IMG/VR virus record: IMGVR_UViG_2648501730_000017
Source: a virus
Lineage: Duplodnaviria > Heunggongvirae > Uroviricota > Caudoviricetes
DNA: 8,455 bases
Strand: one strand, 5' to 3'
Part shown: positions 2,505-8,455 of the stretch, piece by piece
Layout of the letters: the number at the start of each line of letters is the position of its first letter
How positions within the stretch are numbered: the stretch's first letter is position 1
Notes under the pieces: model-generated
Database searches by the model: none
The model's input: only the letters and a program-made list of their open reading frames with translations
What the model was told of the DNA's origin: nothing
Made by a program: the position numbers and the translations under genes

Positions 2505-3202
2505 ACACTTGCTCCTTTCAGCCCAAACTTAGCTTTGATTTCTGCGATCTTCGCCAGAGCCTGTGCACGATTTAGAGGTCTACCGCCCATGGCAGGAAGT
2601 TGTTTTACTGGTTCAGGTATAGCCTCACCACGGTTAATTCGCGCGATCATACAGGACAGTTCATCGGCAGCCTTGCGCCGTAATTCCGCGTCAGTCAGCG
2701 CATTGGCTCGCATGTTCTGGTACAGGTTGGTAACCAGCCAGTAGTGCGCGTTTGATTTCCACGGATAAGACTCTGCATCCGGATACAGCCCGCGCTTCCG
2801 GCAATACTCGTAAACCATATCAACCAGCTCGCTGGCGTTTGGCAGCCCGGCGGTAACGGATGCTTCTTCCCGGCACCAGGCGACAAACTGCCCGGGTGAT
2901 GGCAGGAATGGTCGATTCTGCCGACGGGCTACGCGCATTCCTGCGTTAACCTGTTCCATTGTGGTGATCCCGTTTTCCCGGAAAGCCAGAACCCACTGGC
3001 GGCGGATTTCGTTCAGTTCATTCTGGTCACGGTTAGCCAGGCTCGCCGGGAAAGTTGCCAGTAACTGGCTGAACACACCGTTGATGATCTGCGCTACCTG
3101 CTGTACCTGTGGCTTTTCGTCGTACTGTTCCGGCATGTTGTTGGCGATCCGACGCATCTGCTCACAGTCAAAGTTAACCATTTGTGCGGCGATGTTTTTC
3201 AT
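2501..3202 (-). CDS. P: Lambda-type replication protein P (DnaB helicase loader), 233 aa
   Basis: Translation MKNIAAQMVNFD..EQMRRIANNMPEQYDEKPQVQQVAQIING...AKFGLKGASV is near-identical over its full length to lambda P as recalled; same 233-aa length; start overlaps the O stop. Confidence 0.9.
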   Translation of the reverse strand: MKNIAAQMVNFDCEQMRRIANNMPEQYDEKPQVQQVAQIINGVFSQLLATFPASLANRDQNELNEIRRQWVLAFRENGITTMEQVNAGMRVARRQNRPFLPSPGQFVAWCREEASVTAGLPNASELVDMVYEYCRKRGLYPDAESYPWKSNAHYWLVTNLYQNMRANALTDAELRRKAADELSCMIARINRGEAIPEPVKQLPAMGGRPLNRAQALAKIAEIKAKFGLKGASV

Positions 3203-4128
3203 AAATCCACCCCATAAATCCAGTCAGTGTTTGTCAGGTCCAGTTTTGATTTTCCGGCTGTCACTCCAGCCTGTTGCTTGTTACGGTTGATTTCGAGTTG
3301 GGTCCACTTGTCACGGAGTTTGGCCGGACTTAGCACGTTACCGGACCAGAAGTTGTCCTGGCATGCCCAGCGGAACAGCACGCACATGTCGCGGTGGTTA
3401 CGTCCGTCACGTTCACGCATCAGGCGGATATCGTTAGCCCACCCTGCAAAATTCGGTTTTCTGGCTGATGGCGCGATGGTCTTCACCATGTCAAACATCC
3501 ACTCTGCGGCGGTCAGGTCTTCTGCTGTCCCCCACTTGCTGCCGCTCTGAATTGCAGCATCCGGTTTCACCACAGGAAGATCGTTTTCTGGTTGGTCAGA
3601 GGATTCGCCAGAATTCTCGGACGAAAAAGGTTTTATATTGTCTTTTGTTAGTTTGTCTTTTGTGTTTACCTGATTCGGGTAAACGCCTTTACCTGATTTG
3701 GGTAAACTTTTTTTACCTGATTCAGGTAAATTTACCTCTTTCAGGTAAACTTTATTTTTCTTACCTGATTCGGGTAATGTTGACCATTCACTGACCACAT
3801 TATTAATGCCGGTATTCCGCCCGCTCTGAATAAAAATCCCACGCTTTACCAGAACACTTTTTGCAGCAGAACACTTGTGCGGCAATATCCCGGTTAATTC
3901 GGAAAGTTGCTCGTTGCTAACCCAATCCAGTTTTTTATTAAAGCCATATGTTTTGCGCATGACAGCCAGAAAGACCAGAAGCTGGTGCTGTGTTAATCCG
4001 GCCAGCATCACAGCTTCCAGCAACTCATTTGCAATGCGCGTATAACCATCATCGAGATCTGCCACGCGCGGCTCCTTTTGTGCCGCATCCGGCACTGGAA
4101 AATTGAATATCTCAGCAGTGTTTGCCAT
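3199..4128 (-). CDS. O: Lambda-type replication initiator O (309 aa): N-terminal iteron-binding domain diverged from lambda, C-terminal P-interacting domain lambda-like
   Basis: C-terminal half ...ESSDQPENDL.VVKPDAAIQSGSKWGTAEDLTAAEWMFDMVKTIAPSARKPNFAGWANDIRLMRERDGRNHRDMCVLFRWACQDNFWSGNVLSPAKLRDKWTQLEINRNKQQAGVTA...LDLTNTDWIYGVDL matches lambda O as recalled. N-terminus from the internal Met (MANTAEIFNF...VADLDDGY) aligns with the lambda O start and has a GGGAGG ribosome-binding site 5 nt upstream; the 339-aa track ORF is an upstream extension. Confidence 0.85.
   Translation of the reverse strand: MANTAEIFNFPVPDAAQKEPRVADLDDGYTRIANELLEAVMLAGLTQHQLLVFLAVMRKTYGFNKKLDWVSNEQLSELTGILPHKCSAAKSVLVKRGIFIQSGRNTGINNVVSEWSTLPESGKKNKVYLKEVNLPESGKKSLPKSGKGVYPNQVNTKDKLTKDNIKPFSSENSGESSDQPENDLPVVKPDAAIQSGSKWGTAEDLTAAEWMFDMVKTIAPSARKPNFAGWANDIRLMRERDGRNHRDMCVLFRWACQDNFWSGNVLSPAKLRDKWTQLEINRNKQQAGVTAGKSKLDLTNTDWIYGVDL
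3667..3779. repeat. Replication origin iterons: five ~18-bp direct repeats inside O, flanked by an AT-rich stretch (about 3620-3666)
   Basis: Read directly: TACCTGATTCGGGTAAAC (3667-3684), TACCTGATTTGGGTAAAC (3690-3707), TACCTGATTCAGGTAAAT (3714-3731), TACCTCTTTCAGGTAAAC (3733-3750), TACCTGATTCGGGTAATG (3762-3779). Each has TACC...GGTA internal dyad symmetry. Location inside O next to an AT-rich tract mirrors lambda ori. Confidence 0.8.
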
Positions 4129-4214
4129 AATTCCTCCCGCAATGAGTGTGTTACGATTTGCACCTGAAAGTCGGTTCTGTTCCAGCAGACCGGCTTTCGC
4201 CATTTCTGAACCTG

Positions 4215-4754
4215 TCATATCGCCCCCAGCATGGTAGTAACCATCGCCATCAATGGACCAGCCAGATCTGGGTCCACACGAAACATCGACACAATACCTT
4301 CACTAATTTCCTTCAGTTTCTGGTGGCGTGGTGCGTTGAGAATGACAGCCTGTTTTGCCTCACTGAGTTCCTTTTCCATTTCAGCCAACCTAGCCATGAA
4401 GCTATCCTGCTCAACCAGGTAACCGCGATATTCCAGCGGTAGTACCGCCAGAATTGCCGGGGTCAGTTCACGCACGTTATTTCGGTATTTTTCAGAATCG
4501 AATTTGTTATCGAGGAAGCGGAACAGCTTCTGGCGTGCACGGCTGACATCATCAGGGAAATCGATGGTGCCGCCGCCCTGCTCCCGATACTCATTCACAA
4601 TGAGTGTGGCAACGACATCCTGATTATCTACAGCCGACCAGGCGCGGACGGCATCACGGATTTTTTCGTGGCCTGGCACCTGTTTTGTTTGAGAACGATT
4701 TATCACCGCAGTCGGGCTAAATCCGCTAGTCTGTTGGTATGTAAGTGGTTGCAT
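4215..4754 (-). CDS. YdaT-like protein (about 179 aa) in the cII position; probable CII functional analogue
   Basis: Sits between the cro-like gene and O where lambda has cII, but is about twice the length of lambda CII. GGAG ribosome-binding site 7 nt upstream of the ATG. Family assignment is from recalled Rac / CP-933P ydaS-ydaT arrangements, not from a search. Confidence 0.5.
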   Translation of the reverse strand: MQPLTYQQTSGFSPTAVINRSQTKQVPGHEKIRDAVRAWSAVDNQDVVATLIVNEYREQGGGTIDFPDDVSRARQKLFRFLDNKFDSEKYRNNVRELTPAILAVLPLEYRGYLVEQDSFMARLAEMEKELSEAKQAVILNAPRHQKLKEISEGIVSMFRVDPDLAGPLMAMVTTMLGAI

Positions 4755-4798
4755 AATTGACTCCTTTAGTTTGAATTGACTGTTAAGTTGATTGCTTA

Positions 4799-4811
4799 TT
4801 GTTAAAGAGCG
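4799..4811 (-). promoter_or_regulatory. boxA-like element in the nutR position, just downstream of the cro-like stop
   Basis: Minus-strand sequence CGCTCTTTAACAATAAGCAATCA contains GCTCTTTAACAAT, matching the E. coli rrn boxA (TGCTCTTTAACAATTTATCA, as recalled) at 13 consecutive positions; placement matches lambda nutR. Confidence 0.5.
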
Positions 4812-4823
4812 TGAAATGGAAAT

Positions 4824-5054
4824 TTAAGCTGCGTTCTTTTCGGTGTGTGGAAACAACTTCGGAAGATCCGGGCGAATCTGGTATGCCTTCACTACTCCAC
4901 CAGTAGCCGTAACAATGCTGCCGACATGTTCAGGGGATACCTTTGCTTTGTTGTGAAGCCACTTATAGACGGCCTGCTGTGAAACTTCGCAAGCAGCGCC
5001 CAGTTTCTTTTGTGAACCAACGATATTGATCGCTGTTTTGATAGCTGGGTTCAT
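4824..5054 (-). CDS. Cro-like small HTH regulator (76 aa), first gene of the rightward early operon
   Basis: Small protein transcribed divergently from the cI-like repressor; GGAGG ribosome-binding site 5 nt upstream of the ATG; the segment QKKLGAACEVSQQAVYKWL is helix-turn-helix-like. Confidence 0.6.
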   Translation of the reverse strand: MNPAIKTAINIVGSQKKLGAACEVSQQAVYKWLHNKAKVSPEHVGSIVTATGGVVKAYQIRPDLPKLFPHTEKNAA

Positions 5055-5081
5055 AACAACCTCCGTGGTTAATTTGAATCA

Positions 5082-5110
5082 AGATTAAAACTATGGTTGT
5101 TTTTAGTCAA
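5082..5110 (-). promoter_or_regulatory. pR-like promoter: -35 TTGACT, 17-nt spacer, -10 TAATCT, with a 17-bp operator filling the spacer
   Basis: Reverse complement of 5082-5110 reads TTGACT-AAAAACAACCATAGTTT-TAATCT, about 25 nt upstream of the cro-like ATG. Confidence 0.5.
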
Positions 5111-5150
5111 CAACCATTTTCGTTTGATGGAATAAAACCTTGGTTGTACA
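5087..5150. promoter_or_regulatory. OR-like tripartite operator region between the cro-like and cI-like genes
   Basis: Three related sites: 5087-5103 AAAACTATGGTTGTTTT (strongest, in the pR spacer), 5107-5123 TCAACAACCATTTTCGT (weaker), 5134-5150 AAAACCTTGGTTGTACA (next to the cI-like start). Shared half-site AAAACAAC / GTTGTTTT. Confidence 0.5.
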
Positions 5151-5158
5151 TTTGGACT

Positions 5159-5848
5159 ATGAAAACAACACTCTCAGAAAGACTTAAAGAAGCCAGATTA
5201 GCGCGAGGCCTTACACAAAAGGCGCTTGGGGATTTGGTCGGGGTTAGCCAGGCTGCTATTCAGAAAATCGAAACAGGGAAAGCTAATCAAACAACTAAAA
5301 TCGTGGAGATCGCGAACGCTTTGGGTGTGCGCGCAGAATGGTTATCTTCTGGCGTTGGAAATATGTCAGACAGTACAGTGCAACCAATACAATCAACTGT
5401 CAGCCATTCCAAATACTTCAAGATTGACGTTCTTGATATAGAAGTCAGTGCTGGGCCGGGAGTCATCAACCGTGAGTTTGTAGAAGTTCTACGCTCGGTT
5501 GAGTACTCGTTTGACGATGCTCGTCACATGTTCGATGGTAGGAAGGCGGAAAATATCCGCATCATTAACGTGCGTGGTGACAGCATGTCAGGAACGATCG
5601 AACCAGGTGATCTGCTGTTCGTTGATATCACAGTTAAATCTTTCGACGGTGATGGTATCTATGCGTTTCTGTACGACGACACAGCCCATGTAAAGCGCCT
5701 GCAAATGATGAAGGATAAGCTGCTGGTCATCTCTGATAACAAAAGCTACTCACCGTGGGACCCGATCGAGAAAGACGAGATGAACCGGGTGTTCATCTTC
5801 GGTAAGGTTATTGGGAGCATGCCGCAGACATATAGGAAGCATGGGTAG
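5159..5848 (+). CDS. cI-like prophage repressor (229 aa): N-terminal HTH-XRE domain plus C-terminal S24 LexA-like autopeptidase domain
   Basis: From the internal Met: MKTTLSERLKEARLARGLTQKALGDLVGVSQAAIQKIETGK (HTH), then GDSMSGTIEPGDLLFVD with a downstream HVKRL Lys, the Ser/Lys dyad of S24 peptidases. No Shine-Dalgarno before 5159, and a weak TTGATG / TACATT promoter would start transcription near the ATG (leaderless, as lambda cI from pRM). The 5093 start would overlap operator 1. Confidence 0.8.
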   Translation: MKTTLSERLKEARLARGLTQKALGDLVGVSQAAIQKIETGKANQTTKIVEIANALGVRAEWLSSGVGNMSDSTVQPIQSTVSHSKYFKIDVLDIEVSAGPGVINREFVEVLRSVEYSFDDARHMFDGRKAENIRIINVRGDSMSGTIEPGDLLFVDITVKSFDGDGIYAFLYDDTAHVKRLQMMKDKLLVISDNKSYSPWDPIEKDEMNRVFIFGKVIGSMPQTYRKHG

Positions 5849-7027: not shown

Positions 7028-8455
7028 ATGAGTACAGCACTCGCAACGCTGGCAGGGAAGCTGGCTGAACGTGTCGGCATGGATTCTGTCGACCCACAGG
7101 AACTGATCACCACTCTTCGCCAGACGGCATTTAAAGGTGATGCCAGCGATGCGCAGTTCATCGCATTGCTGATCGTCGCCAACCAGTACGGCCTTAATCC
7201 GTGGACGAAAGAAATTTACGCCTTCCCTGATAAGCAGAACGGCATTGTTCCGGTGGTGGGCGTTGATGGCTGGTCCCGCATCATCAATGAAAACCAGCAG
7301 TTTGATGGCATGAACTTTGAGCAGGACAATGAATCCTGTACATGCCGGATTTACCGCAAGGACCGTAATCATCCGATCTGCGTTACCGAATGGATGGAGT
7401 TGCACGACAAGCGAAAAGCAGAACTCTGGCGAGTAGAAAAGCTAGGGGATTTACCTGATGTCACTTTTGAAGAGGCCTGCCTAAGATGGCTTGAGGAAAA
7501 AGCTGATAAAAAATCTCTCGATTCAGATAAAAGCCGGATTGAGTTCTGGCTTGAACATTTTGAGGGTATAAGGCTTAAAGATATCTCGGAGGCAAAGATT
7601 TACTCTGCTGTAAGCAGAATGCATAACAGAAAGACGAAAGAAATATGGAAACAGAAAGTTCAGGCCGCCATCAGGAAAGGTAAAGAACCGCCTGTTTATG
7701 AACCAAAGCCAGTATCAACTCAGACAAAGGCAAAGCATCTTGCCATGATAAAGGCCATTCTCCGTGCTGCAGAACGCGACTGGAAGTGGCTGGAAAAAGC
7801 GCCTGTCATCAAGATACCAGCGGTCAGAAACAAGCGAGTCAGATGGCTGGAAAAGGAGGAAGCAAAACGCCTTATTGATGAGTGCCCCGAACCACTGAAA
7901 TCTGTCGTCAAGTTTGCGCTGGCAACTGGTCTGAGAAAGTCGAACATCATAAATCTGGAATGGCAACAAATCGACATGCAGCGACGAGTTGCCTGGGTGA
8001 ATCCAGAAGAGAGCAAATCAAACCGCGCCATTGGTGTGGCGCTGAACGATACCGCCTGTAAAGTGTTGCGTGATCAAATAGGCAAGCATCACAAATGGGT
8101 GTTTGTACATACCAAGGCGGCTAAGCGAGCAGATGGAACATCAACGCCTGCGGTCAGGAAGATGCGCATCGACAGCAAGACATCATGGCTATCAGCTTGT
8201 CGTCGTGCAGGAATTGAAGATTTCCGTTTCCATGACCTCAGACACACCTGGGCAAGCTGGCTGATTCAGTCAGGCGTCCCATTATCAGTGCTTCAGGAAA
8301 TGGGCGGATGGGAGTCCATAGAAATGGTTCGTAGGTATGCTCACCTTGCGCCTAATCATTTGACAGAGCATGCGAGGAAAATAGACGACATTTTTGGTGA
8401 TAATGTCCCAAATATGTCCCACTCTGGAATTATGGAGGATATAAAGAAGGCGTAA
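7028..8455 (+). CDS. In-frame fusion: Bet (lambda Red-beta) residues 1-123 joined to a tyrosine integrase (IntD / P21-family like) lacking roughly its first 35 residues; probable deletion product that removed the bet 3' end, exo, xis and the int 5' end
   Basis: Residues 1-123 ([122 protein letters not shown]) match lambda Bet as recalled. From about nt 7397 the protein switches to integrase sequence (ELHDK.KAE.WRV.KLG..PD.TFE.AC.RWLEEKA.KKSLD.DKSRI.FWL..F...), with the catalytic Arg in TGLRKSN, HDLRHTW and the Tyr in MVRRYAHL. Gam stop to bet start geometry (aggtataaaacggATG) is as in lambda. Confidence 0.8.

Follow-up and report, generated by a model that had tools for sequence, protein, structure and literature searches.

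This locus raises the question of what is encoded by the two genes next to a divergently transcribed repressor gene: a toxin and its antitoxin, as the names of their families suggest, or the Cro and CII regulators of a lambdoid phage. The original prediction placed genes of 76 aa and 179 aa in the cro and cII positions and compared them with the ydaS-ydaT pairs of Rac-type prophages. The open reading frame listing of the window (the whole analysed stretch of 8,455 nucleotides) confirms both genes at 4215-5054, each on the minus strand and each starting with ATG (Table 1). Their positions agree as well. The order is cI-like repressor (divergent), cro-like, cII-like, O-like, P-like, and the cII-like gene lies after the cro-like gene, divergent from the repressor and upstream of the replication genes. 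Its ATG is preceded by a Shine-Dalgarno box AAGGAG at a distance of 7 nt, and at its 3' end the TGA stop shares bases with the start codon of the longest O-like ORF, in the overlap ATGA. The replication genes are followed by a ren fragment, emrE and ybcK, whereas kil, gam and a bet'-'int fusion ORF lie past the repressor. The window represents the early region of a lambdoid prophage of DLP12 type; in other genomes this prophage adjoins a tRNA-Arg gene. Since the family matches are strong and the 1.1-kb stretch containing the pair is widely conserved, both ORFs are real genes and not chance ones.

Table 1. Genes and candidate regulatory sites of the repressor-cro-cII-O region, in window coordinates
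Feature	Position	Strand	Basis or remark
lambda O-like replication initiator, directly 3' of the cII-like gene	3199-4218	-	Phage_rep_O, E = 1.1e-33; PHROG 277, E = 4e-163
cII-like gene, 179 aa, predicted long form of the YdaT family (phi80 CII type)	4215-4754	-	Pfam, PHROG, identity with phi80 CII, predicted fold
candidate YdaT-type operator GTGATAAATCGTTCTCAA, codons 17-22	4689-4706	-	8/12 against TTGATT-N6-AATCAA
cro-cII intergenic spacer	4755-4823	-	
direct repeat TTGACT-N6-TTGATT	4776-4793	+	spacer
YdaT-box-like site	4788-4805		9/12; spacer
weak promoter-like TTGATT-18-TGAAAT, toward cI	4788-4817	+	loose scan
exact boxA-like CGCTCTTTAACAA	4799-4811	-	spacer
cro-like gene, 76 aa, YdaS-family HTH regulator	4824-5054	-	Pfam, PHROG and PDB matches
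divergent control region of the cro-like and cI-like genes, 104 bp	5055-5158		
YdaT-box-like TTGATTCAAATTAACCAC	5065-5082	-	10/12; between hand-read pR-like -10 and cro ribosome-binding site
25-bp palindrome ATGGTTGTTTTTAGTCAACAACCAT	5093-5117		control region 5055-5158
cI-like repressor	5159-5848	+	HTH_3 and Peptidase_S24 (Pfam); PHROG 4, E = 8.7e-73

The 76-aa protein had been described as a YdaS-like HTH protein distinct from lambda Cro, and the HMM search agrees: it matches Pfam YdaS_toxin PF15943 above the cut-off (62.2 bits against 30, E = 4.1e-17), and the Pfam family of lambda Cro is absent at E <= 0.01. Weaker Pfam matches, below the curated cut-offs, were observed to P22_Cro (E = 8e-5) and HTH_3 (E = 2e-4). 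The protein also matches PHROG 35 'transcriptional repressor' (E = 1.5e-27) and, weakly, the 'Cro protein' 3bd1 in PDB (E = 7e-4). It is thus a small single-domain HTH protein of the YdaS or Cro type, encoded by the first gene of the rightward operon.

The 179-aa protein is a member of the YdaT family. This assignment, originally made without a database search, is borne out by the score against Pfam YdaT_toxin PF06254, 103.5 bits with a cut-off of 21 (E = 8.5e-30, residues 67-154). An even longer part of the protein, residues 17-179, matches PHROG 163 'CII-like transcriptional activator' (E = 3.9e-67). The Phage_CII family of lambda was absent from its Pfam matches at E <= 0.01, and no NCBIfam model matched. 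The protein is a functional analogue of lambda CII and not a member of its family. CII of phage phi80 is 66% identical to it over the full length (tblastn), and relatives with 48-73% identity, mostly annotated as CII, are found in mEp237, HK225, HK639, CobraSix, PHB10 and Klebsiella phages. The identity with Rac YdaT is 35% over approximately 96 residues of the DNA-binding domain, and the search of PDB by sequence yielded only YdaT of CP-933P (8bt1) and 3c4r. The suggested likeness to the Rac-type pairs is upheld, with one refinement: the closest characterised relative is phi80 CII and not Rac YdaT. Sequence comparison and the structural model support the description of the protein as a phi80-type CII, a long form of the YdaT family.

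The structure of the 179-aa protein was modelled as a monomer with AlphaFold2 from a 31-sequence alignment (mean pLDDT 85.2). Residues 1-25 have pLDDT below 50 and no secondary structure. Helices are predicted at residues 29-43, 45-58, 70-82, 88-104, 107-112, 119-138, 143-159, and 162-178; in the model, a POU-like all-helical HTH (approximately residues 29-112) is followed by the long helix 119-138. The original prediction depended on a DNA-binding fold in this protein, and such a fold is predicted. A Foldseek search of PDB with the model returned the chains of 8bt1 and 3c4r alone (probability 1.0, target-normalised TM 0.67-0.69), the rest being noise. Arg79 is aligned with Arg57 in the recognition helix alpha3 of Rac YdaT, and a Rac protein mutated at both Arg57 and His56 no longer binds DNA (PMC11879457). 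In the 31-sequence alignment, the conservation of Phe78 and Arg79 is 90% or more. The helices after the HTH domain probably drive oligomerisation. Two of them, at residues 143-178, extend beyond what is ordered in the solved structure of YdaT, and because of these extra C-terminal helices the oligomeric state of the protein may differ.

The gene pair is already known and already annotated, and in this respect the finding is ordinary. Positions 4100-5200 of the window match 2,224 of the 5,426 complete E. coli genomes with 95-100% identity (1,215 genomes with at least 99%). This region is 100% identical in phage PhiR34_1 (host E. coli K-12 MG1655 according to its record), where the gene order is the same and the genes are annotated Cro and cII; four other phage records contain the same 1.1 kb at 97.5-99.8% identity. 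The YdaT-type family is small, with 111 clusters (50% identity) at E <= 0.001. Enterobacteriaceae are the named source organisms of the matches and account for 72 of the 73 related genome loci. RefSeq labels the 76-aa protein 'transcriptional regulator'. Its label for the 179-aa protein is 'toxin YdaT domain-containing protein', a misleading one when toxin-antitoxin systems are searched for. The two genes form a standard module of the lysis-lysogeny switch, and their importance is mostly one of annotation hygiene.

Among the related loci, the sequence 5' of the cII-like gene varies as a mosaic, with several cro modules that are unrelated to each other. Therefore, a site working together with the cII-like protein is more likely to be carried by the gene itself. 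The 73 related loci were collected by searching a 10-sequence alignment against contigs of one genome per species; a scan of genome contigs with the cII-like protein as the lone query had found no relatives. The 5' coding region of the gene is unusually conserved as DNA in these loci: by a by-eye estimate, which relatedness or mosaicism confounds, synonymous codon identity is about 0.7 in codons 2-22 against about 0.5 elsewhere. Every position in 62 loci was scored against the published box TTGATT-N6-AATCAA. In each of the 62 loci, the 18-mer that starts 48 nt into the gene has 7-11 matches out of 12, with a mean of 8.3, although, as the loci are related, they do not constitute 62 independent observations. 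Among the background positions of the same loci, 1.7% score at least 7/12 and 0.38% at least 8/12.

Together with phi80, the loci provide 63 sequences in which the codons could be counted. Codons 17-22 encode 19 different hexapeptides (e.g. MINRAQ, LISQNQ, MIYQNR, LIFPCH, LIKLNQ) by 26 distinct 18-mers. Nevertheless, the palindrome core TGAT-N9-TCA is conserved: positions 2-5 (TGAT) and 15-16 (TC) of the 18-mer are constant in the 63 sequences, and position 17 (A) differs in one 18-mer alone, the one shared by the eight MIYQNR loci. Variation is seen at the six positions of the spacer. Several loci reach 10-11 matches, near-canonical examples being TTGATTTTTGAAAATCAG and ATGATAAATCGCAATCAA. 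Since the core is kept despite the changes of the peptide, and in a segment predicted to be disordered, we read codons 17-22 as a DNA element. As far as such a sequence pattern can tell, the TGAT-N9-TCA core probably marks the binding site of the CII-like regulator itself, located in its disordered N-terminal extension. No open paper on the DNA site of phi80 CII was found in a literature search.

A canonical box was observed in the nin region of related phages. A single perfect box (12/12), TTGATTTTGGGAAATCAA, lies between ybcM and ybcN of PhiR34_1, at 12985-13002; about 0.003 perfect boxes are expected by chance in the 44.6 kb of this phage (uniform-base estimate). The sole site of phi80 scoring at least 10, TTGATAAAACACTATCAA at 38718, occupies the equivalent place upstream of a ybcN-family gene. 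Alignment of six phages shows constant half-sites, TTTGAT and ATCAA, around a spacer that is different in almost all of them, and the box is followed by a -10 motif GCCATAAT and a hairpin with compensatory changes in the stem. The left half-site is the -35 box of a promoter that the record X92588 of phage 82 already lists as predicted. By BLAST, this nin element is present in 20 full-genome records, and a phi80-type cII also occurs in 19 of them, the comparison covering all but KO-TP1. These boxes fit a shared specificity for TTGAT(T/A)-N6-(A/T)ATCAA, with common descent of the phages as an alternative. It is plausible, though short of probable, that the 27-residue disordered N-terminal extension of phi80-type CII is conserved mainly as DNA that carries the protein's own operator and travels with cII through mosaic recombination, as the lambda site does, and that the regulator has a second canonical target over the nin-region promoter. 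If this is true, the latter target would connect the decision for lysogeny with the genes that lead to Q, as a differently built counterpart of lambda paQ. The predicted operator in the 5' end of the gene and the nin palindrome are concrete targets for studying non-lambda CII proteins.

The remaining candidate sites of the window lie in the control region and the spacer. In the former, which contains repeated GGTTGT half-sites, promoters were assigned by eye or from loose consensus matches. The number of box-like sites, at 5065-5082 and 4788-4805, is near the chance expectation; as about 0.4 matches like 5065-5082 are expected per window, this site is suggestive by its position only. Related loci with other cro modules do not share the spacer, and thus its elements are only candidates. 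For the same reason the TTGACT-N6-TTGATT sequence, a perfect repeat, was rejected as a lambda-CII-style site of the family. No canonical YdaT box with at most three mismatches was found at the cro-cII junction, its place in CP-933P, except for 4788-4805. Scanning of the plus strand from the operator candidate to cI with the sigma-70 consensus revealed no promoter, and a looser scan gave weak candidates only. One possibility is an arrangement like that of lambda pRE, with the box flanking a poor -35, then 16 nt, then CTAAAT at 4717-4722; conservation of this -10 among the related loci could not be demonstrated. A 9-nt identity of the window, TATGTAAGT, with lambda pRE was rejected as a homologous element: its position is not homologous, and we regard it as a chance match. 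The Rfam search of the window yielded nothing.

The pair very probably represents the rightward early Cro and CII regulators of a DLP12/phi80-type lambdoid prophage. The 76-aa Cro equivalent would bind operators in the 104-bp region between cI and cro and oppose the cI-like repressor. The 179-aa CII equivalent, an orthologue of phi80 CII, most likely binds TTGAT(T/A)-N6-(A/T)ATCAA palindromes, and the degenerate, but positionally conserved, copy in its own 5' coding region (4689-4706) would be one of its sites. Bound at this copy, it most likely activates transcription to the left (plus strand), antisense to cro and toward cI, which would establish repression after infection. The mechanism of activation is not simply transferable, as the two studied homologues place the box differently relative to the promoter. 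The box of the window itself scores 8/12 only and has no convincing sigma-70 promoter beside it, and we count both facts against this scheme.

That the two genes are functional analogues of Cro and CII rather than a toxin-antitoxin pair is favoured by published work on homologues (PMC8630535, PMC9986795, PMC11879457, PMC5917428). The notion of a type II pair with YdaT as the toxin and YdaS as the antitoxin lives on in the Pfam names 'Bacterial toxin ydaT' and 'Bacterial toxin YdaS' and in the RefSeq label quoted above, and overexpressed Rac YdaS and YdaT are indeed toxic (PMC5700377, PMC5700373). However, overproduced lambda CII is itself toxic (PMC5917428), and YdaT of CP-933P is a non-toxic activator of a promoter (PMC8630535). 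YdaS/YdaT had been flagged as a toxin-antitoxin pair by an algorithm, but the tests on homologues cited in PMC9986795 and PMC5917428 failed, by these citing accounts, to confirm it. Moreover, the predicted HTH fold is a DNA-binding one, with no enzymatic or toxin domain, and the genes occupy the cro and cII positions of an immunity region that isolated phages have as well, so that a toxin-antitoxin pair is highly improbable here. It is less improbable, but still quite unlikely, that the two genes are an inert remnant within a defective prophage. The window is shorter by approximately 2.7 kb than the best-matching genomes and contains the bet'-'int fusion, its ren ORF is apparently truncated, and IS-disrupted versions occur in other genomes. 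On the other hand, both ORFs and the control region are intact in this element, and positions 4100-5200 retain complete identity to the PhiR34_1 copy.

If the pair is accepted as Cro/CII regulators, the 179-aa protein might still act mainly as a repressor or autoregulator that occludes promoters or blocks elongation, e.g. at 5065-5082 and 4689-4706. The best box of the window (10/12, 5065-5082) is just downstream of the hand-read pR -10, the perfect box of PhiR34_1 covers the -35 and the spacer of the predicted nin-region promoter, and Rac YdaT bound in the intergenic region lowers the expression of racR (PMC11879457). With two of the best boxes overlapping promoters, a mainly repressive role keeps some plausibility, but we consider it unlikely: both studied homologues activate a leftward promoter of the repressor gene (PMC8630535, PMC11879457), cII of phi80 is annotated as 'CII decision making protein' in database records, and repression and activation can coexist. 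A somewhat stronger, yet still doubtful, objection concerns the operator: the conservation of TGAT-N9-TCA could reflect constraint on the protein or its translation, combined with shared ancestry, and no binding site at all. Indeed, the loci are related, the window copy with its 8/12 is weak, and part of the left half-site is fixed by the invariant Ile18 and by the NTG codon of residue 17, which is always M, L or V. However, residues 1-25 are predicted to be disordered, and the third position of codon 21 is T in 63/63 sequences despite seven different amino acids. Similarly, Ile18 is encoded by the rare ATA in 54/63 and by ATT in 9/63 sequences, but never by the common ATC, whereas the spacer codons vary freely. 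Several loci, as noted, have 10-11 matches to a box that was defined experimentally.

Among the known systems, phi80 is the closest. Its CII (JX871397 / NC_021190, 180 aa) has the N-terminal extension and the C-terminal helices in common with the 179-aa protein, is encoded in the same place, between the cro-like and O-like genes, and contains the same type of box at codons 17-22, ATGATAAACCGCGCTCAA. The differences are in the surroundings: the upstream cro and cI modules of phi80 are other ones, reflecting mosaicism, and an oop-like M3 RNA separates its cII from gene 15, whereas cII of the window overlaps the longest O ORF.

YdaT of CP-933P (8BT1) and its close homologue 3C4R share with the 179-aa protein the Pfam family, the fold (TM 0.68-0.69 on the target), the recognition-helix motif QK(I/L)FR(W/F)LD, and the cII position (PMC9986795). 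However, the identity is only 26-27%, and the 179-aa protein has an additional disordered N-terminus of 27 residues and approximately 40 additional C-terminal residues (two helices). Jurenas et al. found that CP-933P YdaS and the repressor PaaR2 cross-regulate divergent promoters and that the non-toxic YdaT switches on a PRE-like promoter located between ydaS and its own gene, and pointed to the homology of YdaT with phi80 CII (PMC8630535). In the structure of Prolic-Kalinsek et al., this YdaT is a POU-like HTH protein forming a tetramer via helix alpha6, and its footprint is TTGATT-N6-AATCAA (PMC9986795). The CP-933P operator is located at the end of ydaS, whereas the window candidate is inside the ydaT-like gene.

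The Rac genes ydaS and ydaT (E. coli K-12 b1357/b1358) belong to the same two Pfam families and have the same order, divergent from the repressor. According to Wons et al., the site of Rac YdaT, ATGATTCATGAAAATCAA, spans the start codon of ydaT itself, and from it the protein switches on a reverse promoter located in ydaS, which raises racR expression up to 29-fold; the protein also binds the intergenic region between racR and ydaS, that is, between the repressor and cro (PMC11879457). Rac YdaT is shorter (140 aa), with a box that overlaps the start codon instead of lying within the coding sequence. The positions of the two boxes are parallel: the Rac box stops 1 nt short of the His-Glu codons at the start of helix 1, and the window box stops 18 nt short of the equivalent codons. 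The repressors differ as well, since RacR is not an S24 self-cleaving protein, whereas the window repressor carries Peptidase_S24.

The positions of the genes are also those of lambda cro and cII and, for the studied YdaS/YdaT homologues, the regulatory logic is shared too. The site of lambda CII is likewise inside the 5' end of its own gene. This likeness does not extend to the sequences: a relationship of the pair with lambda Cro and CII is undetectable by Pfam at E <= 0.01, and the window nowhere contains the direct repeat to which lambda CII binds, TTGC-N6-TTGC. It is the gene context that, according to Jobling, makes YdaS and YdaT the equivalents of Cro and CII (PMC5917428).

Outside the window, the genomes of phages PhiR34_1 and phi80 contain a canonical YdaT-type palindrome (published YdaT box: TTGATT-N6-AATCAA) together with a hairpin element. 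The PhiR34_1 copy matches the box in 12 of 12 positions. The palindrome spans the -35 box and spacer of a conserved predicted promoter, TTGATT-17-CATAAT, upstream of ybcN/ninB. In the six phages compared, the half-sites of the palindrome are invariant and its spacer is variable. The hairpin is located 3' of the palindrome and promoter; its loop GCCTGAACAAC is conserved, and changes in the stem are compensatory. This element and the phi80-type cII co-occur.

Coordinates of candidate regulatory elements and open reading frames
Feature	Position	Strand	Remark
ren-like ORF, 69 aa	2295-2504	-	
Iteron-like repeats (TACCTGATTCGGGTAA and variants)	3640-3790		Within O-like gene; read from sequence
Promoter-like TTGAAT-17-CATAAT with upstream TG	4103-4131	+	Consensus match
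boxA-like sequence CGCTCTTTAACAA	4799-4811	-	Exact, 13/13; cro-cII spacer
25-bp palindrome ATGGTTGTT-TTTAGTC-AACAACCAT	5093-5117		cI-cro control region
Promoter-like TTGATG-17-TACATT	5124-5159	+	
bet-int fusion ORF, 475 aa, single frame	7028-8455	+	
YdaT-type palindrome and hairpin, PhiR34_1	12985-13060		Outside window
YdaT-type palindrome and hairpin, phi80	38718-38800		Outside window

The 25-bp palindrome of the cI-cro control region is accompanied by GGTTGT/ACAACC half-sites repeated at 5055, 5140 and 5163; the palindrome and half-sites probably serve as operators for CI and Cro. The predicted start from the promoter-like TTGATG-17-TACATT coincides with, or adjoins, the A of the ATG codon of the cI-like gene (5159), and thus suggests that the repressor mRNA is leaderless. 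Leaderless repressor mRNAs were reported for paaR2 of CP-933P and cI of lambda (PMC8630535). The boxA-like site occupies the position equivalent to that of nutR in lambda. No N-like ORF is visible between the end of cI (5848) and kil (6360), and a search for a second boxA found none.

The bet-int fusion ORF combines the N-terminal ~130 residues of Bet/RecT with the catalytic portion of an intD-type tyrosine integrase. The alignments to the best-matching genomes consist of two pieces and cover ~11.1 kb versus 8.4 kb in the window; by this comparison, ~2.7 kb is absent here, namely the rest of bet, exo, small genes and the 5' part of int. The ren copy looks frameshifted or truncated, because the match to Ren families is confined to the first ~44 residues and Ren of PhiR34_1 has 100 aa (303 nt) versus 69 aa in the window. 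Alignments to the best-matching E. coli genomes begin at position 38 and leave positions 1-37 uncovered; the ybcK-like serine recombinase gene therefore departs from the common allele over its last ~12 codons.

The only consensus promoter match within 4100-5300, TTGAAT-17-CATAAT, lies in antisense orientation within the 5' part of the O-like gene and points into the cII-like gene from its 3' side. No terminator was found. The same position is occupied by pO and the oop RNA in lambda and by the M3 RNA in phi80. The iteron-like repeats are situated as expected for a lambda-type origin, inside the O-like gene.
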